A DNA stretch of 64,000 nt from Candidatus Latescibacterota bacterium (lineage in GTDB: Bacteria > Latescibacterota > UBA2968), in contig OZ242195.1 of the NCBI GenBank assembly GCA_965205975.1, forward strand, positions 3,296,001 through 3,360,000, in the 5' to 3' direction. Both the position numbers and the translations under genes were made by a program. Position 1 is the stretch's first letter; the number at the start of each line of letters is the position of its first letter. Shown here piece by piece: positions 30,803 to 45,913 of this stretch. The notes beneath the pieces are model-generated. The model was not told where the DNA came from. It made no database searches and saw only the letters and a list, made by a program, of their open reading frames with translations.

Positions 30803-30841
30803 AAAAAGTGCCCCGACAAATATCACCGGGGCGTTTTTTAA
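30803..30841. terminator. uvrA terminator hairpin (related copies at about 32110-32148 and 34878-34914)
   Basis: AAAAGTGCCCCGACAAATATCACCGGGGCGTTTTTT. Confidence 0.7.
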
Positions 30842-31906: not shown

Positions 31907-32018
31907 CTTGTTCACAACCTGAATTTAAATCCGCAGATGGCCGCAGATGGGCACAGATGAAAGGCGAAAGGGTACATTTTGAGCTATTAATGCGTGGTCA
32001 TGTGAAAGATATGTACCG
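31907..32018 (+). repeat. About 115-120-bp dispersed element, copy 1 (inverted copy at 43113-43234)
   Basis: ACAACCTGAATTT-ATCCGCAGATG repeats-AAAGGCGAAAGGGTACATTTTGA...ATGTGAAAGATATGTACCG shared by both copies. Confidence 0.85.
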
Positions 32019-32259
32019 CTTGCCCATTTGTATGTTTCAAACATAGAGTATTCTCAGGAATGCCTCAAGAGCTTATGACCTTGAATTTGACACGTTTCAA
32101 GCCAAAAGAGAAAAGTGCCTCGACAAACATCGTCGAGGCACTTCTTTGACGTGGTATGTCAGCTACAGAGAACAAAAATCCATTCTTGCACGGTGGATCA
32201 TGTATGTCCTTCTACTCAAAATTTAGCTCGAGTTCCCTTCAGATAATCAGGGTTGAAGA

Positions 32260-32553: not shown

Positions 32554-34047
32554 TTACGATCTGATAACACTTAAGGATGGCCCGGCAGTTTGAGACATCA
32601 CTTGCTCAAAGAGCGCGTCGGTCTCATCGCATGCGCGAACCACTGATTCGTATTCGTGTTCTATTTCATCCCAGATCATGTGCAGACGTGATACTTCCTG
32701 CAGATCCTCCTCGATAGCGATCTCCAGCTTTCTGTCAGCTTCCCGTACCCGAGCGATGCCCCACCGACCACCTATCTGAGCCCCGACTAGAATCGGGACA
32801 CCAGCGATTCCAAGGGGCGCAAGAACCAATGGCAACACATCAAGAGCAGACTTGACAGCGCTGCCAGCCACCGCATTCGCAACAGAAATGTCCCCTTGGC
32901 GTGCGGATCTGATCTCTGAAAACAGATCGGTCCCCACAGCTATGAAACAGAACCCAGCGGCAACTCCATTCTGCGCCACCGCCTTCGCCGCCTCAGGCGT
33001 CATTCCAAGCGATGACGCAGCGTGAAAGATACCAGCGTCCGCTATTGCACCTCCAGCACCGAAAAGTGCTCCTTTACCTGCAGCCTTACCTACTTCGGCG
33101 ACATCGATATCGCCGCCAGAGGCTGCCTGAACAATTAGGGATAGAATCGCTGCAGTTGCCGCCGCAAAAGCAGCACCTCCAGCCACTCGAGTTGCTACAT
33201 TGCGCGATTGGTAAGCCATCGCGATATCATCCCGCAATTGTTGAAGCTGCCGACGAGCAACCGGGTCGAGTCCATCATCTGCGTACCTACTAATATTCTC
33301 GACGAGTTGCTCCGCCTGTGCGTCCAAATCCTTGATACCGCGTAACTGGACTTTCGCCTCCTGTAGCCGACGAGCCTCGCGAGCAGTAAAGCCGTCTGGT
33401 GCTACTCGTGGTGTACCGTCAGGATTGACGAAACGGGAATCGACATATCCGACTTGTCCGTATCCGGGCGATTCAGCCATCCGCACCAACTCACGAGAAA
33501 CATATCGACTCGATCCCGTTTTAACCTGACCGTTTAGCTTAGTTATCAACATTCCGTCTTTAGTGCGAAACTGGAATACCAGATCCTTTCGGCTCGTGTG
33601 ATCCGGCGAAAGCCGAATGTCATAGACATTCGTGGCGATTTTATGCGGGGAATTAGTAATACCTGGATCTCGGCCAGCGTGAAGGTCGAGGTAATATTTA
33701 GCAACCACCACTTCCGCCCCTTTGCCCTTTGGATTGGCTCCGGAGACGAGGCTCTCGAGTTCTTTTCCGCTCGTCACCAACCGCTCACACGTTTCTGGCC
33801 GGAGTCCATTTGGAAGTGCAGTACCATCACTTACTGCTCGAGCAGCTTGAGCCGCCTCTCGGGATCCCGCTGCGACCAAGGGCTGGGTCTGACGGACAGC
33901 TTCGGAAAAAACTCGACCTTGATCAATAACACCCGGATCCGTAACTGCACGCGGCGTTATTGTCGGTGCGATCGCGGCATTGGGTGTCACTGCAACAGCG
34001 GAACCGGCTATTGACCGGCCCTTGCCCTTTTTGCGTTTATCTGCCAT
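32554..34047 (-). CDS. Hypothetical protein: putative PD-(D/E)xK-like N-terminal domain plus Gly/Ala-rich membrane hairpins and coiled coil
   Basis: GKGAE...D...GQVKTG motif; hydrophobic glycine-zipper stretches; GGAGG RBS. Confidence 0.65.
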   Translation of the reverse strand: MADKRKKGKGRSIAGSAVAVTPNAAIAPTITPRAVTDPGVIDQGRVFSEAVRQTQPLVAAGSREAAQAARAVSDGTALPNGLRPETCERLVTSGKELESLVSGANPKGKGAEVVVAKYYLDLHAGRDPGITNSPHKIATNVYDIRLSPDHTSRKDLVFQFRTKDGMLITKLNGQVKTGSSRYVSRELVRMAESPGYGQVGYVDSRFVNPDGTPRVAPDGFTAREARRLQEAKVQLRGIKDLDAQAEQLVENISRYADDGLDPVARRQLQQLRDDIAMAYQSRNVATRVAGGAAFAAATAAILSLIVQAASGGDIDVAEVGKAAGKGALFGAGGAIADAGIFHAASSLGMTPEAAKAVAQNGVAAGFCFIAVGTDLFSEIRSARQGDISVANAVAGSAVKSALDVLPLVLAPLGIAGVPILVGAQIGGRWGIARVREADRKLEIAIEEDLQEVSRLHMIWDEIEHEYESVVRACDETDALFEQVMSQTAGPSLSVIRS

Positions 34048-34057
34048 ATAAACCCTC

Positions 34058-34138
34058 CTAAAAAATTAATTCGACTTTTCTATTGCTTCCACTACTCCCA
34101 CCTTTACTACCACCGCGACTAACGTTTGATTTACCTAT
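34058..34138 (-). pseudogene. Degenerate Gly-rich micro-ORF (start mutated to ATA), paralogue of 36636-36737
   Basis: AAAGGAGGT RBS then ATA-GKSNVSRGGSKGGSSG. Confidence 0.55.
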
Positions 34139-34216
34139 TTTCTTACCTCCTTTCTCGTTGGCATCCATCGCCTCAGAGGAATACTACCCAATTGAAACGA
34201 TCATTTTCTCGCATGT

Positions 34217-34459
34217 TCAGTACAGTTCTGTTCTGCGCGTTCGCATAGCATCTGCTTGATCAATCTCTTTTCCCAGTGCCAAGAGATGCGCTGGGCGACC
34301 AAAAGGCTTTAGTGGTCGACGAGGCGAGGCACCGCAATCTAAATTCGGCTTGTTGCGGTTGAGATGCCGAATTTGTCTATGCGCTCTTAGCGCACTGTCT
34401 AATAGGGGTATTTCATCAAGGAAAACAAGGCCAGAGTGGCCATCTTCGGCATCGCTCAT
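34217..34459 (-). pseudogene. Internally deleted copy of the 36789-38543 gene
   Basis: MSDAEDGHSGLVF matches its N-terminus and is fused in frame to RAHRQIRHLNR...AHLLALGKEIDQADAMRTRRTELY, its C-terminus. Confidence 0.85.
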
Positions 34460-34534: not shown

Positions 34535-34609
34535 CGAACCCGCAGGATTCCCGACAGAAGAAGTGTCGAGACCGGAAGAGATGCAAACTGCATCAAAGCA
34601 CGAGGTTCG
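34535..34609 (-). ncRNA. Putative structured 5'-leader RNA, copy A
   Basis: Three-way junction just after promoter TTGACA(34643)-16-TATTCT; covaries with copy B. Confidence 0.6.
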
Positions 34610-34676
34610 ACCCAAAGAATAGCCAATTTGTCTGGATTGTCAACCCATATTTGGAAAATTCAAAGAATTTTTCAAC

Positions 34677-34857: not shown

Positions 34858-34971
34858 AATTGTAACCGCAAAAAAATAAACTGCCCCGACAATATCTGTC
34901 AGAGCAGTTTTTTAATCTTCTGTCATGGTCTATCAGCTATCTAAAATAATAACCCATTCTCGCCCAGCAGA

Positions 34972-36399
34972 TCAGGTACCTCCTTCTCTACACAGATAAT
35001 TTTTTATTATTTCCCGCAAATCAGGAAATTGAAGCAACCCATCACTATCTCGGACTTGCTTTGAACATCGATTTATATCTTCTGCGATCTTTTTTAAACC
35101 TATGATTTCGCGCGCTCCCATCCATCTACTCTGCAAGAGGATGTTATTGTCCTCAATGTCGAATTTATAGCCCCATTTATCGCGTTTCAAGTAAAGTTCT
35201 GTACCTTTGAGTACATTGAGTGGAAAAAGATAGAGTCCTCGCGGACAGGCATCTATAGCCCTTTCATAGCTCGACAGAAAATTGTCTAACGATTGAAATG
35301 GCAATCCAAAAATAAGATGGAGATCAAAGGGGACATTGAATCGATGTAATAGTTCAATCGCCTGATCAATTTTTGGATAATTATTCCCTCAATCTATGGC
35401 TTTAGACTCCTTTTCTTCAAAAGTTTGAACACCAAATTCAAGCCAAACGTCATGATTTCTACAAAATTCCAGGAATTGCTCACCGTCCTTAAGGCAAAGC
35501 AATTCCAATCGGCACTGAAAGTAGAATCTCGCCCGAATTCCTAAAGCCTCTATTTTTTTACAGATTGCTAAATAGTGATCTGCCCGGAGATTGAATATCG
35601 GATCGAGTACGTTAATCTCTTGAACTCCCTTCTCTTTGAAATACTCAAGCTCTTGAAAAAGTCGTCCGTGATTGATTTCTGCTGTCTTATGTCCTGCCAA
35701 ACGAAACTGACAAAACGAACATTGGTATGGACACCGACGCAGAGTCTCCCAACGGACAAATGCTTGGTTTTGTTCAACTGGGAGGATGTGACTCAAGTAG
35801 GGAGACTCTAACTTATCCAAATCAGGGGGAAAGCTGCGGTCACATTCTCCCTTTTTGAGAGTTTCAGGCGTGTAAATCGCATACTTGATTAAAAAGTGGC
35901 GATCTGGTGTCTCACAACGAGATATTGCGTTGATCAATTCCGTGAAAGGCACCTCTCCTTCTCCTTTAACAAAATAATCCACTCCGGGATACTCTTTTGC
36001 CAAGCTGTGATCGCCATAAGTAACTTGTGGACCACCCAAAATAATTATTATCTCTGGGTATTGGACCTTAGCCCAACGAACTACATCTGGAACGTATTTC
36101 TCGTTCCAAATATAACCCCCAAGTGCGAGAAATTTCGGACGGCTCTCCTCAATGAGTTTCAATACATCACGAACTCTAAAGTTGGGAGAATTCAGATTGA
36201 AGTTTTTGAATTCTGATTTTACATCCCCGGTTTGATTTTTCCTGAAATAAGCCTCTATAGAGGCCATAGCAAGCGGTCTTCTCAGATCTTTAGGCCGCGA
36301 CCAATCTAAAGAGATAAACAACAGATCTAACTGGGTTGAGGAATCAACTGAGAATTCGGAGGAATGGGCTTTATCAGCACATTTGTCAGTGATTTGCAT
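34972..36399 (-). pseudogene. B12-binding radical SAM protein interrupted by an in-frame TGA at 35389-35391
   Basis: B12-domain motifs (YIWN, GGPQV, GEGE), CPYQCSFC; frame continues past TGA as GNNY...DLHLIFGLPFQS to 34972. Confidence 0.8.
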
Positions 36400-36462
36400 T
36401 TTGGAACTCCTTTCGCAAATGGCATTAAGGGGACGATGTTTCTATCCCAGTTGTCGTGAAAG

Positions 36463-36530
36463 GATGCATCGGGGCACAATCCCAAAGGGATCAAGAGTGA
36501 GGCTATTGGAGCCTCGAAGTGCGACGCATC
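36463..36530 (-). ncRNA. Putative structured intergenic RNA upstream of the radical SAM gene
   Basis: Outer stem GATGCGTCG/CGATGCATC enclosing hairpins GAGGCT/AGCCTC and GATCCC/GGGATT. Confidence 0.4.
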
Positions 36531-36635: not shown

Positions 36636-36737
36636 TTAACCGCCGCATGAGGGATTGCCGGTTCTACTGGGCCAGCCAGCACCTTGTCCACGGCTGCTGC
36701 CTTGACCACCACCGCGATTAATTCTTGATTTCGCCAT
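36636..36737 (-). CDS. Gly-rich micro-peptide MAKSRINRGGGQGSSRGQGAGWPSRTGNPSCGG (possibly truncated; read-through adds TNAPPKRK to 36609)
   Basis: Strong RBS AAAGGAGGTGA about 5 nt before ATG; paralogous remnant at 34058-34138. Confidence 0.65.
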   Translation of the reverse strand: MAKSRINRGGGQGSSRGQGAGWPSRTGNPSCGG

Positions 36738-36788: not shown

Positions 36789-38543
36789 CTACCAGTACAA
36801 TTCTGTTCTGCGCGTTCGCATAGCATCTGCTTGATCGATCTCTTTTCCCAGTGCCAAGAGATGTGCCTGGCGAAGCCACCAAAAGGCTTCAAATAGGGGT
36901 CGGCGAGGCGAGGCACCGCGCTCTAAATTTGGTTTTCTGCGGTTGAGATGCCGAATTTGTCTGTGCGCTCTTTTCGCAAATTCGCGGACATTTTTATTGG
37001 GATCGTTTTTAGAGAGCCAGAAAAGCGTTCTGTGTGCTCTTCCTCCGGGATTAACGCGCAATGCCGCCAATGCCCGCACATAACACTGTCGCCATATAGA
37101 CCGAGGTTCTACGAAATCTCCATCTGCATAATCCGATACTTTCTCGCTGCGACTTGTGTCATTTTTTTTTGTTTTCAGCCTTTCAAGACAAAACCTTGCA
37201 AACTCTTCGCGCAACCCCTGCAAGTGCGGGTCTCTATTCAGTTCACTCTGAAGATTCCGAAGATCCATAGAGATTTCAATCCAAGAAGGGATTTTATTAT
37301 ATGGATGAGGCGGAGGCTCTTTATCAGATCCGGACCAGTGGCTAAGATCCGAGGCAACGGCTGGTTCAGTCATCTCCGTGAAAGCCAGTAATAAGGACTT
37401 CAAGCATCGCCACGGAGAGGAAAAAATTAACAACACCTCAAAAGCCATATGATAAAAATCGTAAACGGGCGCACCTGTTGGATCCTTATGTTTAAAGTCT
37501 TCAGGCGTCTCTCGCAGCACTTTCCGCAATATTCCCATGTGTTTGGTAGCACTTGCGACAAGCCGATTTCTCAGTTCATCTGACAGACCAGACTCCAACC
37601 CGCCCATACCCCTACTGTAAATCAATACAGATAACCACCACCAGGCCTTGAGCAAAGATGCGCGTCCTCGACTTAACTCAGGTTCTCTTTCATCCAAAAG
37701 TTCCAGGAATGGGATTAACTCATCTGCAACAATCTGCCATCCGTAACCTGCGTGCTTCAAACGTTCCTTACCCGACGCAAAGCCAATATTCGTAGCATAT
37801 TCAATGGCATGCAGGAGACCAAAAATTTTATCGCCCAAAACATCTTCCGGAAAACTGGAAAACACTTGTAAAACGGTGTCCAATCTGATTATATCGCAAC
37901 GTTCTGCGTTATCCCGGAATCGCCAGATTAACCAAAATTCAATCTGTTCAGGATCACTAAAATCATTATTGGACCATCCTTGTCGCCGAATCGGATTCAA
38001 CAACTCAAAATTGACGACCAGATCTAAAGGCACGCCTTCTGAAAAAAGAAATGGAATCAGGTCAAAGAATAGGAAAGTATGCGCATCCCTAATTTCTATG
38101 AGCTTGTGCCAATCCAAACGTCTTGCACTAAACACCGCCTGCCTTTGAAACTCGTCAACCCACGCGGGAATAACCCAGTCTCTACCTGATTTCACCAGCT
38201 TATCATTGGGCTGAACCACTTCGCTGTAGATAGGCCCAAACCCGAGCAAAAAGCTCAAAAGCAGTGATAGGCGGGTTTGGCGGTCTTTCTCGGTTTGATC
38301 CGGCTCTCCTAACTTGTCCACGACCCCAAGCAGGACACGCTCAAAATAATCCGCAAACTCGCCTTTGAATACAGCGTCACTGCTGCGATCGCCAAAACAG
38401 TCTGGACGTTCAAAAACGCGAATTAGCCATTCCTCGTCATCACGGGAAAAACCAGCGTCCTGAAGGCACTGTTTTACAGGAAATATTTCTGAATCATCTA
38501 AAGGGAAAACAAGGCCAGAAGGGCCATCTTCAGCTACGCTCAT
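36789..38543 (-). CDS. Hypothetical 584-aa all-helical protein with HEAT-like C-terminal segment
   Basis: Long ORF; GAGGAG RBS before ATG 38543; WRQCYVRALAAL...NDPNKNVREFA HEAT-like pair. Confidence 0.75.
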   Translation of the reverse strand: MSVAEDGPSGLVFPLDDSEIFPVKQCLQDAGFSRDDEEWLIRVFERPDCFGDRSSDAVFKGEFADYFERVLLGVVDKLGEPDQTEKDRQTRLSLLLSFLLGFGPIYSEVVQPNDKLVKSGRDWVIPAWVDEFQRQAVFSARRLDWHKLIEIRDAHTFLFFDLIPFLFSEGVPLDLVVNFELLNPIRRQGWSNNDFSDPEQIEFWLIWRFRDNAERCDIIRLDTVLQVFSSFPEDVLGDKIFGLLHAIEYATNIGFASGKERLKHAGYGWQIVADELIPFLELLDEREPELSRGRASLLKAWWWLSVLIYSRGMGGLESGLSDELRNRLVASATKHMGILRKVLRETPEDFKHKDPTGAPVYDFYHMAFEVLLIFSSPWRCLKSLLLAFTEMTEPAVASDLSHWSGSDKEPPPHPYNKIPSWIEISMDLRNLQSELNRDPHLQGLREEFARFCLERLKTKKNDTSRSEKVSDYADGDFVEPRSIWRQCYVRALAALRVNPGGRAHRTLFWLSKNDPNKNVREFAKRAHRQIRHLNRRKPNLERGASPRRPLFEAFWWLRQAHLLALGKEIDQADAMRTRRTELYW

Positions 38544-38619
38544 ACCAACTCCTCTGTTAAGCGTCAAGCCATATCCTTGTGAGCAATCAACTCAGAATTT
38601 TGTAATCCTGTCTAGATTG

Positions 38620-38694
38620 TGAACCCGTAGGATTCCCGACAGAAGAAGTGTCGAGACCGGAAGAGATGCAGATTGCATCAAAGCACGAGGTTCA
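38620..38694 (-). ncRNA. Putative structured 5'-leader RNA, copy B
   Basis: Same fold as copy A, directly after TTGACA(38729)-17-TATTCT. Confidence 0.6.
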
Positions 38695-38760
38695 AAAAAA
38701 AGAATATACAATTTGCTCAGATTTGTCAACGCCAAATTTGAAAAATTCCAATTGCTTCCA

Positions 38761-38795
38761 ACAAAAAACGCCCCAGCGCGTGCCGAGGCGTTTCC
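38761..38795 (-). terminator. Terminator downstream of rfbB (partial copy at 34767-34794)
   Basis: AAACGCCTCGGC-ACGC-GCTGGGGCGTTTTTT on minus strand. Confidence 0.7.
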
Positions 38796-38945
38796 TTCTT
38801 TTATTACCAGATTTTATTCCGTTTCTCATCCGCGTCTATATGACGGGCAGGCACAAGGCACTGCCCCTACATTCATTTCACCCGCATTCTCATCTGCGTC
38901 TATCTGCGTCATCTGCGGATACTTATGGTTTTTCATCCCCACCAC

Positions 38946-39959: not shown

Positions 39960-40191
39960 ATTTTTCTCCTAAAAGCATCCGCAGATGAACGCAGATAGAC
40001 GCAGATGATGTGGGGGCAGTGTGTGTGAACGGGCCTGGATAGAAACCGCTCGTGCCTGCCCATCAGATGAACACAGAGTAAGGAGCGATCAGCTTTCAGC
40101 TTTACTACGTTAAAATGAGAGTGTCATCGCGGCATGGTGTTGAGCCGCGATCCAGGAGGCTTTTCGCTGACTGTTTATTTTCTAAACATTC

Positions 40192-40434: not shown

Positions 40435-43074
40435 CTAAACATTGCCAATTTTTTCTATCAACTGCTGTCGTACATCCTTGCCATCGACGTTCATCTCCGC
40501 GATGATGAACAGCCCTTTGCCATCGCTTTCCTGCTCCCAAAGAGCACCTATGGTTCGCTTATCCGCGGTATCGGACCCCTCGGCAATATGTGCACCCTTG
40601 TACTCGACGACAAAAAGACGGTCATCCTCCAACTGCGCAACAAAGTCCGGATAGAATTTGTCCGTCGGAGTCGGCAGAAAGAACGACTCCGAATGACGCG
40701 CTACGTTGCGAATCCAGTATTTCACTTCTGCCAGACTGTCGATGACCTGAGCACACTGCGTCTCCTCGCCATCTTCAACACCATCAAAAGCGGGAACGCG
40801 ATCCGTACCTAAAAAATGCTTACACGGCTTCCAGCGTCCACGATAGTATCTTTGATCCTGGTACATCCCATCCACAAATGTGAAAGCAGAGTCGAACGAA
40901 ACCGAGACCTTAGACCCAGGCGCAAAAAGACACCGCTGATAAACACTGTTTTGCTCCTGCTGGCGAATGGCATTGATTTTTTTCGCAATTGTGTTGGCAA
41001 GCAGAAATTTACAACGCATCAGTGCGGAGATGGACATGCCGCGTGCCTTGAGCAAATGATTGACCAGTTCGCGTAGCCATTTGAGCAGTTCGCTCTGGTG
41101 AATATCCATCTGTCGCACCTGTCGGTCAAGCCACAGGACAAGTGACTCTGGCGTCCAGCTTTCCGCAGCAATATCCAGAGCCAATTGCTCATCCTCACTG
41201 GCAAACTGATAGGTGACGCGCTTGCCTTCAATATCAATCTCAAAACTGCGTGCTGTCTCGCGGATCGTGAACTCATCTTCGTCCATCTTTGGGGAATAAT
41301 TGAGCAGCGACCAATCGTGGTATTCCATAAAAATGTCCGTATCGGCAAATTCCAGCGTACCCTGGATATCCGACATCAGACGCGGAACCTCGAATTTCTC
41401 CCCTTGTTCAGCAGGCGATATTCTATCCTTGATCTCGTCGTGATATTTCGCAACAGCATCAACAAAATCTTCTCTCTGCGGTTCAGGCAAACTCTCACAA
41501 ATCGCCTTCTCATCGTCTTCACTGATCCAACCTGTAACTGCGATCTCAACCTCTCCTTCAGTTGTTTCGCGCACCAGCAGTCCATCTTGCCCTGCCTCTT
41601 CGAGCCTGGACACGACTTCTGGCGTCGCCGGTGCTCTGTATCTGAACACCAACTCTGTCTCTTGACGCGGACCAAACAAGTCGCCCTGATCTTCGAACGC
41701 ACGTTGAACTGGCTCGATATTGTCGAGGGCCTCATCTTCCTCAAAGCCCATACCCACCAGTTTATCAGTAAGCCCTCGCGCCGCCTCTCCAAAAGACGGT
41801 TCGGACAGAAACGCATACGCTTTGTTGAGATCGGCAACCCCACGCCGTTTGGCATAAGGCATCCGAAGCACGCGACCGAGAAGTTGCTCCACATCTTTTG
41901 CACTTTGAATGCGCGACACAGAGCAAAAAACATAAGCAAATGAACAGTCCCACCCTTCTTTCAGTGCCTCAACCGTGATGATATATTCGATAGGGCAAGC
42001 GCGGTCAAACAGATCAATACCATCGAGTTCGCGTTGGTTCCCAGTGGCAATGGCGATCTTGTCTTCCGGAATCTGTTCCACTTCCATCAGATGATCTTTC
42101 AGTGCTGCAACCGTCACCTCCTGGTTTCGTGGCTGTGCCTGGAACAAGACAATGGGACGGATATAGTCGGCATCGTCGCTCGCAGTCTCTGCAAGAGAAG
42201 CACAAGCGGCAATAGCACCGTTTACAGCATTCTGCCATGTATCGTGCTCGGAAAGCATAATAGGCAACTTGATCATCTCTTCGCGCTTCAATTCCTGCGC
42301 CGTAACGCTGTGCAAAATATTTGACCTGCGCCGTGGCGTAGCCGTGAACTCGACAATCGCGCACGGATTCACCCGCGCCTGCATCTCCCGGGTCAAGCCA
42401 GTAACCGCGTTGTGCGCCTCATCCACAATCATCAGCGGACGGTGGATATGGAGCAAGTTGGCAAAAGAAAATTTGACACCACCTTGTTCCAACTTCTCCA
42501 ACCCAAGAGCAGTGTTCCCAACATTAGAGAAATGCGGCTCCATCTCCTCGTTGTGAGCATAAACCTTCCGCCCCTCAGTACGATTCACCCTCAGCGTTTG
42601 AATCGTACCGACCACAATGCAGCAATGATCGCGAATATCGTGCGGTCGGATATGCGTAAAATCCGCAATATCGAACACCCGCACCCGACCATCAAAAGCA
42701 TCATCCAACACCTGCCGATACGCATGGCGCGTAGTCTTCAATGCCTCAACCGTCTGCTGGCGAATGGTATTCGTCGGCACCAGCCAGAGCACTACGGGAT
42801 AATCCTTCTCAATCCATGCATTGCGAGCAACCGACACGGCATGTGCAGCGAGAATCGTCTTACCCCCACCCGTTGGCAGGCGCAAACAAACATAGGGAAC
42901 ATCAAACAATTCTTTTAACGGCACATAAGCACCAGCATAGCCCCCAAGCCGCATTGCCTGCTCTGGCTCTTGCGTGATTGCCTCGTACGCGTTCTTCGGT
43001 CCCGCCATCCGCGCCTCCTCAAAGAAGCGACGCAGAATAGACAGCGTATCAGTCTGGTATTGTTTTAAGTTCAT
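40435..43074 (-). CDS. res: Type III restriction enzyme Res subunit
   Basis: LPTGGGKT, VDEAH, ALKEGWD, QLLGRVLR, C-terminal YPDF...VVEYKG nuclease motif. Confidence 0.9.
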   Translation of the reverse strand: MNLKQYQTDTLSILRRFFEEARMAGPKNAYEAITQEPEQAMRLGGYAGAYVPLKELFDVPYVCLRLPTGGGKTILAAHAVSVARNAWIEKDYPVVLWLVPTNTIRQQTVEALKTTRHAYRQVLDDAFDGRVRVFDIADFTHIRPHDIRDHCCIVVGTIQTLRVNRTEGRKVYAHNEEMEPHFSNVGNTALGLEKLEQGGVKFSFANLLHIHRPLMIVDEAHNAVTGLTREMQARVNPCAIVEFTATPRRRSNILHSVTAQELKREEMIKLPIMLSEHDTWQNAVNGAIAACASLAETASDDADYIRPIVLFQAQPRNQEVTVAALKDHLMEVEQIPEDKIAIATGNQRELDGIDLFDRACPIEYIITVEALKEGWDCSFAYVFCSVSRIQSAKDVEQLLGRVLRMPYAKRRGVADLNKAYAFLSEPSFGEAARGLTDKLVGMGFEEDEALDNIEPVQRAFEDQGDLFGPRQETELVFRYRAPATPEVVSRLEEAGQDGLLVRETTEGEVEIAVTGWISEDDEKAICESLPEPQREDFVDAVAKYHDEIKDRISPAEQGEKFEVPRLMSDIQGTLEFADTDIFMEYHDWSLLNYSPKMDEDEFTIRETARSFEIDIEGKRVTYQFASEDEQLALDIAAESWTPESLVLWLDRQVRQMDIHQSELLKWLRELVNHLLKARGMSISALMRCKFLLANTIAKKINAIRQQEQNSVYQRCLFAPGSKVSVSFDSAFTFVDGMYQDQRYYRGRWKPCKHFLGTDRVPAFDGVEDGEETQCAQVIDSLAEVKYWIRNVARHSESFFLPTPTDKFYPDFVAQLEDDRLFVVEYKGAHIAEGSDTADKRTIGALWEQESDGKGLFIIAEMNVDGKDVRQQLIEKIGNV

Positions 43075-43112
43075 AACACGGCTACTCGACAATGGTTCGG
43101 ATATTTTTTGAA

Positions 43113-43234
43113 CGGTACATATCTTTCACATAACCGCCCATTCATGGATCAAAATGTACCCTTTTCGCCTTTCATCTGTGCCCATCTGTGCCCATCTGCG
43201 TCCATCTGCGGATTAAATTCAGGTTGTAAACAAG
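43113..43234 (-). repeat. Dispersed element, copy 2 (inverted relative to 31907-32018)
   Basis: Reverse complement aligns with copy 1 and has one extra GGGCACAGAT unit. Confidence 0.85.
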
Positions 43235-43391
43235 CGGGCAATACAGCATATTTAAAACATAATGCAGTATTTAGACATCTTCCAACGCAAATTATCGCTC
43301 ATTTTTTAAAGGATTACCATTTTTTGGCCTGCCATTTGCTTTGTGTCTGACTGTCCCACGCACTCACCCCATCAGACGCGAGGCATCTTAC

Positions 43392-44300
43392 ATGGCAGAC
43401 ATTGACACCATATCCAAATACCTCATTCAACACTATCCCGACCACTTCGTACGCTTCGCTCTCTCGCGAGACGACATCGAGGTCATTGACGTCATCGAAA
43501 CGGAGCAACCCACGGTCAGAGCACGCCGTAGCGACAGCTTCATTCGCGTGCGTATCGATGGTCAGGAGGCATTAGTCCACAACGAATTTCAAACGGCCAG
43601 CAGCACCAATCCGCCTATGCCGCGCCGCATGGTTGGCTATATCGGACATGCCATTGAGCATCATGGCCTACCGATCTACTCCAACGCCATCTACCTGCGA
43701 CCCGATGCGGGACAGAACGATCTGGGATATTACATTCAGGAGTTTCCCGGCTACGAAATCGCGATTCGGTATCGCGTGATCAGACTGATCGAAATAGAAG
43801 GCCAACGCATCTTGGATACGGGGCATTCGGGGCTGATTCCTTTCACGCCATTGATGAAGCCACCTGAGGAAATGGCATCTGATGCGTGGTTACATCAGTG
43901 TATTCACACCGCTCGGGCGCGTCCCATCGCTCGTTCGCCCAAAGCCGATTATCTGGCTGGGATGGTGGCCTTGAGCGAGTTGGTATATGATTCTGAAACC
44001 ATTTCTGCTATCATTTTCAAGGAGGGCATCATGGACATCTTGCGCGAATCATCTCTTTTTCAATCCCTTACCCAACAAAGCAGAAAGGAAGCCAGAGAGG
44101 AGGGCATTGAACAAGGCGAAAGAAGAAGCACGATCGAAGCTATCCTTGAAGTGCTGGAGATTCGATTTAACATGCCCGAGACACACACCCTATCCACTCG
44201 CATTGCCGCTATTGACGATTTACAACGCCTCAAGCAGTTGCTCCGTACAGCGGTCCAGGTGCCCAATCTCGAAGCATTTCAGCGCATATTAGATGCGTGA
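43392..44300 (+). CDS. Rpn/YhgA-like (PD-(D/E)xK) family protein
   Basis: DTISKYL, RRSDS...HNEFQ, MPRRM..Y, LRESSLFQ, EEGIEQG repeat. Confidence 0.8.
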   Translation: MADIDTISKYLIQHYPDHFVRFALSRDDIEVIDVIETEQPTVRARRSDSFIRVRIDGQEALVHNEFQTASSTNPPMPRRMVGYIGHAIEHHGLPIYSNAIYLRPDAGQNDLGYYIQEFPGYEIAIRYRVIRLIEIEGQRILDTGHSGLIPFTPLMKPPEEMASDAWLHQCIHTARARPIARSPKADYLAGMVALSELVYDSETISAIIFKEGIMDILRESSLFQSLTQQSRKEAREEGIEQGERRSTIEAILEVLEIRFNMPETHTLSTRIAAIDDLQRLKQLLRTAVQVPNLEAFQRILDA

Positions 44301-44371
44301 CGTGATTTCCATAAGCCTGACGAGATACAGGGACACCGCGCAACATCAGTTATTTACACTATGATCGCCCC

Positions 44372-45913
44372 TCACATCCGAGCCTTCACATCATAAGGCG
44401 TCTGCTTAAAAATAATGCCCTCGCGCTCAAGTGTTTGTGGCATCAAACGCGACTGCTCGCCATAAACCGTCAGCGGTCCATCGGCGTCTGGATGCGCTTT
44501 AGAGATTTCCTCGCGGATATGCACCAATGTTGCACGGGTCAAAACATTGCCACCACCTGGTCGCTTATCTCCAAGAATACCATTGTATAACAACGCATAA
44601 GCGCGCCCATCGTGCAAACCGAGAAATGGAGAATCGCCCTTCCCTTTCCACGGATACCCGGTCTCGCTAAAATAAACATGCGCGGCCAGAACGGAAAATC
44701 GAATATCTGACCGAATCTGCCCATCCTCATCAAACACAGGCGGACCGAGGCGATAGAAGCGAAACCCACCACCACCCTGCCAATTGACACTCTTTGAAAT
44801 ACCACCCTGCTCGCCCTCAATCACCTTCCGCAGACGCGGAACACAATGACTGACCGCGTGCTCACCCATCTCAATACCAATGTACCGCCGCCCCATCTTA
44901 TGCGCCACCGCCGCCGTAGTGCCCGATCCGAGGAAAGAATCGAGAACGAGATCGCCGGGGTCGGTGGCGATGTGAAGGATGCGTTGAATGAGGCGTTCGG
45001 GTTTTGGGGTGTCAAACGTGTTGGCTACGCCAAAAAGTATATTTACCTCTTTCTTGGCCTCCTGATTATGGCCAACCTCTTCATTTGGCCACCATGTCCA
45101 AGATTGTCTGCCTCTTGCTTCCGCTAGATAATTTTTCCTACGAGGAACGCCCTTTCCATCCCTCCCAAACCAGAATCTTCCTTCCTTCACTTGGTTTAAA
45201 AAAACGTCTTCCACATTTTTCCAACAAGACCCCTCTGGTGGATAGTATTCAGCACCACCTGGCGTTACGATTTTATACATTTGATTTGGCCTGTAACCCT
45301 GTGCACTAAAATCCCTCGAAACCCATGGACCACGCGGATCATTATCGGGATTTTTGTATTCCTTTTTCTGGTTTTCGTTTAGCGGGAGTAAGTTTGCTTT
45401 TTCGCGGAATAGGGATACATTTTTTGAAGAAACAAGAACATTTTCGTGCCCATCTCCAAGAACTGCTCGAAAATCGGGTGAAGTTCTCTTTTGCCAAACT
45501 ACATTTGCCACGAAATTTCTTCTTCCGAATACCTCATCCATAATGACTTTCAGATAATGCACCTCATTGTCATCAATCGACACCCAAATCGATCCATCCT
45601 CTGATAGTAACTCGCGCAGAAGTTCAAGGCGCGGCCACATCATCGCCAGCCACTTGCTGTGTTCGAGATTATCGTCGTAGTGCTCGAAAGCCGAGCGCGT
45701 GTTATACGGCGGATCAATGTAAATGCACTTCACCTGTCCAGAGTAGAACGGCAGCAATGCCTTGAGCGCGTCAAGATTGTCGCCCTGGATGAGCATATTG
45801 TCGGCATCCGTATCACCAGAGGAAAGGTCGGATGCTTCCTCCAGCAAGCGATACGGCACGCGAGTGGCGGCGCGGATATTTTCGTCTCGTGTTAGCCAGT
45901 GTAGAATCGGCAT
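44372..45913 (-). CDS. mod: Type III R-M DNA methyltransferase Mod
   Basis: IQGDNL, YIDPPYNT, TPKPERLI, DSFLGSGTT. Confidence 0.92.
   Translation of the reverse strand: MPILHWLTRDENIRAATRVPYRLLEEASDLSSGDTDADNMLIQGDNLDALKALLPFYSGQVKCIYIDPPYNTRSAFEHYDDNLEHSKWLAMMWPRLELLRELLSEDGSIWVSIDDNEVHYLKVIMDEVFGRRNFVANVVWQKRTSPDFRAVLGDGHENVLVSSKNVSLFREKANLLPLNENQKKEYKNPDNDPRGPWVSRDFSAQGYRPNQMYKIVTPGGAEYYPPEGSCWKNVEDVFLNQVKEGRFWFGRDGKGVPRRKNYLAEARGRQSWTWWPNEEVGHNQEAKKEVNILFGVANTFDTPKPERLIQRILHIATDPGDLVLDSFLGSGTTAAVAHKMGRRYIGIEMGEHAVSHCVPRLRKVIEGEQGGISKSVNWQGGGGFRFYRLGPPVFDEDGQIRSDIRFSVLAAHVYFSETGYPWKGKGDSPFLGLHDGRAYALLYNGILGDKRPGGGNVLTRATLVHIREEISKAHPDADGPLTVYGEQSRLMPQTLEREGIIFKQTPYDVKARM

Follow-up and report, generated by a model that had tools for sequence, protein, structure and literature searches.

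What is the folded RNA that stands twice in this part of a Latescibacterota genome, each time directly behind a promoter, and what does it do for the genes that follow? The window, by which we mean the whole stretch of 64,000 nucleotides that was analysed, carries two copies of a 75-nt element on its minus strand, each with a TTGACA/TATTCT promoter just 5' of it, exactly as a sequence-only reading of this DNA had reported. One copy (copy B) precedes the gene for a 584-aa protein and the other (copy A) the relic of such a gene. The element, here called RNA-1, is the folded 5' leader of a defence-type operon. The coordinates of the features discussed below are collected in Table 1.

Table 1. Features of the locus in the window, in the direction of transcription (positions count from the first letter of the window).
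Feature	Position	Strand	Basis or remark
Terminator-like hairpin and U-run ending the upstream gene	38763..38793	-	Read from sequence; Rfam gives generic terminator tails only; listed by the terminator search on the + strand only
Promoter of copy B, sigma-70-type, TTGACA-17-TATTCT	38701..38729	-	Promoter pattern
RNA-1 core, copy B, three-way junction	38620..38694	-	Folding, alignment and tree-based covariation
RNA-1 copy B helices	P1 38693-38688/38626-38621; P2 38679-38675/38669-38665; P3 38656-38650/38640-38634	-	
P4 hairpin, variable in length	38584..38619	-	Seen by eye in the alignment; columns too poorly aligned for scoring
Conserved (N)GGAU, predicted pseudoknot partner of AUCC(N) 38633-38629	38573..38577	-	91% paired, 59 rows
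P5 stem, leader paired with start codon, Shine-Dalgarno enclosed	38537..38563	-	GCU/AGC in 14 rows, GCC/GGC in 4 closely related rows
Gene for 584-aa alpha-solenoid (HEAT/ARM-like) protein of no known family	36789..38543	-	Acidic N-terminal half, basic conserved C-terminus; lacks the last ~12 residues of homologues
Small Gly/Lys/Arg-rich peptide, 33 aa, WPSxTGNPS motif	36636..36737	-	Stop earlier than in homologues; no Pfam match
RNA-2, second three-way junction, with anti-Shine-Dalgarno strand (36465-36455)	36455..36530	-	Search, alignment and Shine-Dalgarno pairing test
Cargo: B12-binding radical-SAM gene, PDC-M51A type, in two pieces (336 + 110 aa)	34972..36399	-	
Promoter of copy A, TTGACA-16-TATTCT	34616..34643	-	Promoter pattern
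RNA-1, copy A	34535..34609	-	Sequence search and folding
Relic of helical gene (start and last ~60 codons, middle deleted) and of peptide gene, behind copy A	34088..34459	-	
497-aa ORF behind copy A	32554..34047	-	No Pfam match; not preceded by RNA-2

The two copies, identical at 70 of 75 nt, are the only ones that a search of the 5.56-Mb genome returned, and both lie on the same strand of the window. The outer stem has its first G 8 nt past the -10 box, and a promoter pattern in a looser form stands 5' of 53 of 60 RNA-1 copies. Copy B is predicted to fold at -26.9 kcal/mol (z -4.9) and copy A with a z of -1.9. The earlier description of hairpins P2 and P3, and of P4 after them, is borne out. 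The outer stem exists as a 6-bp helix, GAACCU/GGGUUC, but the extra CGU/ACG register that had been attached to it is absent from the homologues (alignments judged by eye), and the U-G/U-A change cited in favour of that stem falls with this register. The earlier observation that G-U pairs work only on the minus, or sense, strand holds, with 43 U-G pairs at a single P1 position of the alignment. The element was also thought to be better conserved than the decayed gene behind copy A; the figures, 70/75 for the element and 186/211 for what survives of the gene, show no significant difference (Fisher P=0.27), and that gene was damaged by internal deletion, not by divergence.

Covariation in a larger alignment had been named as a check on the element, and compensatory changes are indeed found in the RNA-1 helices across 59 homologues. 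Pairing amounts to 98.9% in P1, 95.6% in P2 and 91.0% in P3, against 29-50% for slid partners, and double changes occur at 18 of the 23 pairs, the pseudoknot included. Same-branch compensatory events were counted on a tree of 53 rows built independently from the downstream proteins, with six relic-linked rows excluded, two rows retained that have a relic between leader and gene, and one gap shifted in L134. They numbered 7.0 against 1.9 expected for P1, 15.5 against 2.75 for P2 (P<0.001 for both) and 17.2 against 9.7 for P3 (P=0.004). An all-against-all test of the R-scape type made one RNA-1 pair individually significant; the second-ranked was a P2 pair, with an E of 2.4 among 6216 pairs, or about 0.01 by our own arithmetic if only the proposed pairs are counted. 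Overall, the structure of RNA-1 is real, with single pairs under-powered. It matches no Rfam family at or near the gathering score, consistent with the view that it is no known riboswitch: the Rfam 15 scan of the window at gathering threshold returned rRNA and tRNA only, and E-value scans of RNA-1 and RNA-2 gave sub-threshold chance matches only. Likenesses to hammerhead, twister and attC elements, judged by eye, were dropped since the core motifs are missing.

The 75 nt described earlier are the core of the element; the leader is longer and also holds a pseudoknot partner and a start-codon hairpin. The AUCC(N) strand 3' of P3 and the (N)GGAU strand behind P4 form a likely, although weakly supported, pseudoknot, whose three core pairs are present in 58, 59 and 58 of the 59 rows, with 4 compensatory events against 1.5 expected (P=0.036; not significant pair by pair). 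Blocking GGAU in silico barely opens the ribosome site of the helical gene, as accessibility rises from 0.51 to 0.53 (55 of the 59 rows, four being without a called start or Shine-Dalgarno sequence). Therefore, a simple switch in which the pseudoknot just releases the Shine-Dalgarno sequence is not supported. P3a (GG/UC at the base of P3), which would use the same bases as the pseudoknot, was also discarded, with zero compensatory events. The last hairpin of the leader pairs with the start codon or the Shine-Dalgarno sequence. The helical gene appears to start with AUA, GUG or UUG in six loci (L094, L099, L032, L042, L110, L134), which suggests deliberately weak initiation. In another locus an IS4/5-family transposase gene lies within the leader just 5' of GGAU and splits RNA-1 from its gene (L053:5154-5945).

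A scan of genome contigs for the helical protein yielded 42 loci, most of them with Latescibacterota or Poribacteria titles, whose general order is promoter, RNA-1, helical gene, small peptide, RNA-2 and interchangeable cargo. The cargo is a beta-CASP nuclease in 25 loci, a viperin in 14 and a B12 radical-SAM protein in 8. The viperins have strong PADLOC pVip scores and the radical-SAM proteins match PDC-M51A; related loci (L031, L057, L078) carry a pVip gene where the window has cargo of the PDC-M51A type instead. In these matches, to pVip, to the VakA/PDC-M51B kinases and to PDC-M51A, the cassette is similar to prokaryotic viperin and PADLOC PDC-M51 loci. Prokaryotic viperins are antiviral (10.1101/2023.09.13.557418). 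PDC systems are described as predicted candidates that still await functional study (10.1101/2024.01.29.577857). However, the viperin neighbourhoods are described in the available part of that first source by their kinases and not by RNA leaders (10.1101/2023.09.13.557418), and the helical protein is covered by none of the PADLOC models. The beta-CASP and B12 radical-SAM proteins take viperin's place behind the same RNA and are on this ground nominated as antiviral effectors.

The slot behind the helical gene is taken by one of two unrelated peptides, a Gly/Lys-rich type with WPSxTGNPS and an acidic type with NQLNxNNDAYW (for example window 36737-36636 on the minus strand, L018:4128-4298 and L021:7817-8011). 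By loose patterns, 22 of the 42 loci have the WPS type, 10 the NQLN type and 2 another, with none found in 8; neither type matches Pfam. The window's own locus looks partly decayed, because the protein is without its last residues, the peptide stops early, the radical-SAM gene is split and the gene of copy A is lost, or it may contain assembly errors. Behind copy A, the 497-aa ORF is a candidate further effector; no RNA-2 was found 5' of it. It has a possible PD-(D/E)xK-like motif, seen by eye, and Gly/Ala-rich hydrophobic helices, and its N-terminus is similar to that of a 496-aa ORF behind the second copy in another locus (L018:6653-8143). Several other features lie around the cassette. Type III restriction-modification genes (Res, 885 aa, and a methylase-like protein, 513 aa) occupy window 40435-45913, and a Res gene is also found upstream in L018, L020 and L021. 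A dispersed MITE/REP-like repeat family rich in CATCTGCG occurs at window 31925-32018, 43113-43234, 38890-38910 and 39977-40008, with inverted copies 11 kb apart, and three related terminator-like hairpins lie at 30804-30839, 32111-32146 and 34877-34912.

The second RNA of the operon lies between peptide and cargo, its junction in the window spanning 36530-36463. An iterated search gave 53 copies from 54 sources, of which 52 stand before a gene of one of the three cargo types (22 beta-CASP, 20 viperin and 10 radical-SAM genes) and one before another ORF; where a locus has two cargo genes, RNA-2 stands before each. One copy, which follows an NQLN-type peptide with no recognisable cargo downstream (L111:4353-4457), is probably a relic. 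By alignment counts over 50 copies, 3 degenerate ones being excluded, pairing amounts to 88% and double changes occur at 16 of the 24 pairs. The strand that leaves the outer stem pairs better with the Shine-Dalgarno sequence of its own cargo gene than with those of others (44 rows, 6 excluded; P=1e-4). The preference persists when each type is represented once (n=20, P=0.001), and a control 11-mer gave P=0.66. Folding of whole leaders showed no excess occlusion of the ribosome site over shuffled controls (0.40 vs 0.39, n=50, P=0.45). RNA-1 and RNA-2 share a three-way-junction topology and no sequence similarity, with HMM scores above 5 bits in 1 of 53 and 0 of 59 cross-comparisons, so that the case for a single protein reading both is one of topology.

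The protein encoded behind RNA-1 belongs to a sizeable family, for which one search gave 431 relatives and another 462 clusters at 50% identity, and it falls into no annotated group. It has no Pfam, PADLOC or PHROG match and two sub-cut-off NCBIfam matches only; 72 homologues gave one weak, unrelated match, PADLOC models matched none of 10 family members, and PDB sequence and ESM Atlas searches returned no family. The AlphaFold model is all-helical and confident (pLDDT 84.8). Compared by fold, also with a view to HEAT/ARM RNA-binding families of solved structure (Ro60/TROVE, PUF), it matches designed repeats at best in Foldseek (E 1e-3, TM 0.22) and generic HEAT/ARM solenoids in VIA (best Z 9.0, rmsd 8.9 over 281 residues), which does not make a new fold. 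The conserved part is the basic C-terminal half: residues 441-584 hold 32 K/R against 17 D/E, and 18 basic columns in the range 340 to 580 are conserved across 112 distant homologues. From this composition we infer that the protein binds RNA through its basic C-terminal half. A double-length relative of 1170 aa, a tandem fusion, is followed by RNA-2 and a viperin-kinase unit (L113:6691-10200; P0121, P0122).

Could RNA-1 instead be a small RNA in its own right, joined with the 584-aa protein in a ribonucleoprotein and serving as an antitoxin or the cofactor of a sensor? The element begins at the predicted transcript start, is strictly tied to the gene and may form a pseudoknot, and the protein has a basic surface. 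In AbiF/RCd22, according to the available part of the report, a leader RNA with the abiF motif controls a defence-associated gene in cis and binds the encoded protein (10.1101/2025.04.15.648962). The present system is similar in having a structured RNA 5' of a defence-associated gene, with binding here a proposal; unlike AbiF/RCd22, it has no abiF Rfam match and no Abi_2 domain, its protein is a non-enzymatic-looking solenoid, and a second RNA stands before separate, swappable effector genes. The type III toxin-antitoxin comparison fares similarly. As described in the available part of the source (PMC3401426), these systems share the arrangement of promoter, RNA and protein gene, and the possible pseudoknot is a further likeness; however, the present leader has no short tandem repeats or toxin-family homology, and its structure reaches the start codon. 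A repeat array was absent from the window repeat search and from the 42 loci, which have one leader per gene start, and the Pfam, PADLOC, PHROG and NCBIfam searches gave no match at cut-off that would point to a ToxN, CptN or TenpN endoribonuclease. The suggestion of a type III-like RNA partner is thus not supported in the classical sense: repeats, a terminator before the copy B gene and a nuclease family match are all missing, and on repeats and toxin family the locus would not be placed among classical type III systems. Since P0001, as the 584-aa protein is labelled, shows generic solenoid folds without an Abi_2, ToxN or other Pfam match, and RNA-2 and the start-codon pairing would be left unexplained, we regard a separate RNA as unlikely.

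The distribution of the RNAs points to the helical gene as well. Of the 42 helical-gene loci, 41 have RNA-1 and the exception (L044) has only 64 bases upstream; L057 and L058 have their match on the downstream side, ahead of a decayed gene start. Among 101 Poribacteria genomes the protein occurs in 20, RNA-1 in the same 20 and RNA-2 in 18 of these. In the window's phylum both RNAs occur in the same 14 of 151 genomes, all among the 19 of 168 that have the protein. Barring one extra weak RNA-1 match in Poribacteria (E=0.005), judged to be chance, RNA-1 and RNA-2 are found only in genomes with the helical gene; the counts are non-independent because of kinship and linkage, and travel on one cassette can account for the co-occurrence. 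A plasmid search returned no match, viral contigs gave 2 loci in one scan and none in two others, an Acidobacteriota-centred search of 401 genomes matched the centre genome and one weak case, and a search of the 33 genomes of the phylum of G153 matched the centre genome only. Nine leaders precede a truncated or deleted helical gene (window copy A, L018, L037, L051, L053, L057, L058, L111, L112); all have an intact helical gene in the same genome, and seven are tandem neighbours. G152 holds two leader and viperin-kinase units, with the helical gene deleted, 0.8-0.9 Mb from the nearest intact gene, and in G244 RNA-2 and viperin are on a different contig from RNA-1 and a helical gene without cargo. 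Such unlinked modules would fit action in trans and also the simple reuse of a promoter. Together with the covariation, the position at the transcript 5' end and the absence of an Rfam match, this strict co-occurrence upholds the earlier proposal of a new cis-regulatory RNA or protein-binding leader.

More distant loci carry the same arrangement. Two prophage contigs (L078, L079) encode helical homologues of 33-34% identity. In L078 viperin comes next; in L079 it is a small ORF, along with a weak match to PDC-M51A. Gene order and three-way-junction leader are kept, the sequences are unrelated, and models R1 and R2 do not detect these leaders. The leaders of L078 and L079, the own leader of L058 and the intergenic stretch of L079 are predicted to form a three-way junction that at most 0.6% of shuffles match, and the intergenic stretch of L078 is not; one of the four candidates outside the models failed to fold as predicted. 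These scores are inflated, as the distant stretches were chosen by eye. A fold that is kept while the sequence is not is as expected of an RNA co-evolving with its protein.

This bears on the possibility that RNA-1 and RNA-2 are riboswitches responding directly to a small molecule or to a phage-made factor, with no part for the helical protein. The use of the same bases by the pseudoknot and P3a looks two-state-like, and RNA-2 has an anti-Shine-Dalgarno expression platform. However, only 3 positions are invariant in the 59 RNA-1 rows (29 more columns are nearly so) and none in the 50 RNA-2 rows, the distant loci hold shape and not sequence, and neither RNA is found in a genome without the helical gene, which makes a riboswitch quite unlikely.

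Two further readings dispense with a switch of this kind. The RNAs might be processing or stability elements that fix the mRNA level of each cistron, for example through cleavage by a host RNase or by beta-CASP itself; beta-CASP is the commonest cargo, and RNA-2 is intercistronic, with a promoter pattern 5' of only 10 of its 53 copies. Many loci, including the window, nevertheless have no nearby beta-CASP gene, and the anti-Shine-Dalgarno covariation indicates translation initiation, so that we consider processing improbable. The folds might instead be constitutive dampers of costly genes, with the protein serving defence in some other way, for instance by sensing phage on behalf of the effector. 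The ribosome sites stay paired with GGAU blocked or free, and the non-AUG starts of several copies would suit a damper, but one hairpin would suffice for this, and a conserved junction upstream of it, with its conserved linkers, would be unneeded; this reading is equally improbable. That RNA-1 is a DNA-level element of a mobile cassette, a recombination or single-strand hairpin site, is hardly credible despite the patchy distribution and a gene that has repeatedly been duplicated and internally deleted, as wobble pairs occur on the sense strand only, the place after the promoter is fixed, and no recombinase cluster is among the neighbours common to at least 3 loci (clusters judged by eye).

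Autoregulatory leaders that bind a protein, such as those of ribosomal proteins S15 and S4 and the rne 5' UTR, have a junction or pseudoknot by the ribosome site and co-evolve with the downstream protein. RNA-1 is similar in being a conserved 5' UTR structure found only alongside its protein gene; unlike those leaders, it has no Rfam match, belongs to a patchy defence cassette and is accompanied by a second RNA class for effectors. By this analogy, the helical protein may bind the leader and repress translation. Because a second folded RNA stands before each swappable gene, the protein likely uses the RNAs to time the translation of defence genes. We therefore prefer the reading in which RNA-1 and RNA-2 form a translational control circuit for defence effectors that is read by the operon's own helical protein; we give this an even chance, with both the binding and its direction being proposals. 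The basic C-terminal half of the solenoid would bind the junction fold, and binding to RNA-1 would likely hold the protein's own synthesis low by feedback. At RNA-2, closure of the outer stem would take up the first anti-Shine-Dalgarno bases and free the ribosome site of the effector, and effectors would thus be made only with the protein in its active state, presumably on infection. That the solenoid itself senses infection and turns on the translation of plug-in effectors through junction leaders, as a new class of bacterial immune regulation, is a more tentative extension that we hold to be rather doubtful.

A literature search over titles and the openings of abstracts gave no description of the system. 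The two undescribed RNA motifs and the unannotated protein family acquire here a common, testable context. If the circuit holds, it would be through translation that bacteria keep viperin-class effectors silent until they are required. If the wider proposal is true, the operon would represent a post-transcriptional, inducible defence 'regulon' with viperin, beta-CASP RNase and B12 radical-SAM proteins as effectors, spanning Latescibacterota, Poribacteria and the 462 more distant protein clusters.
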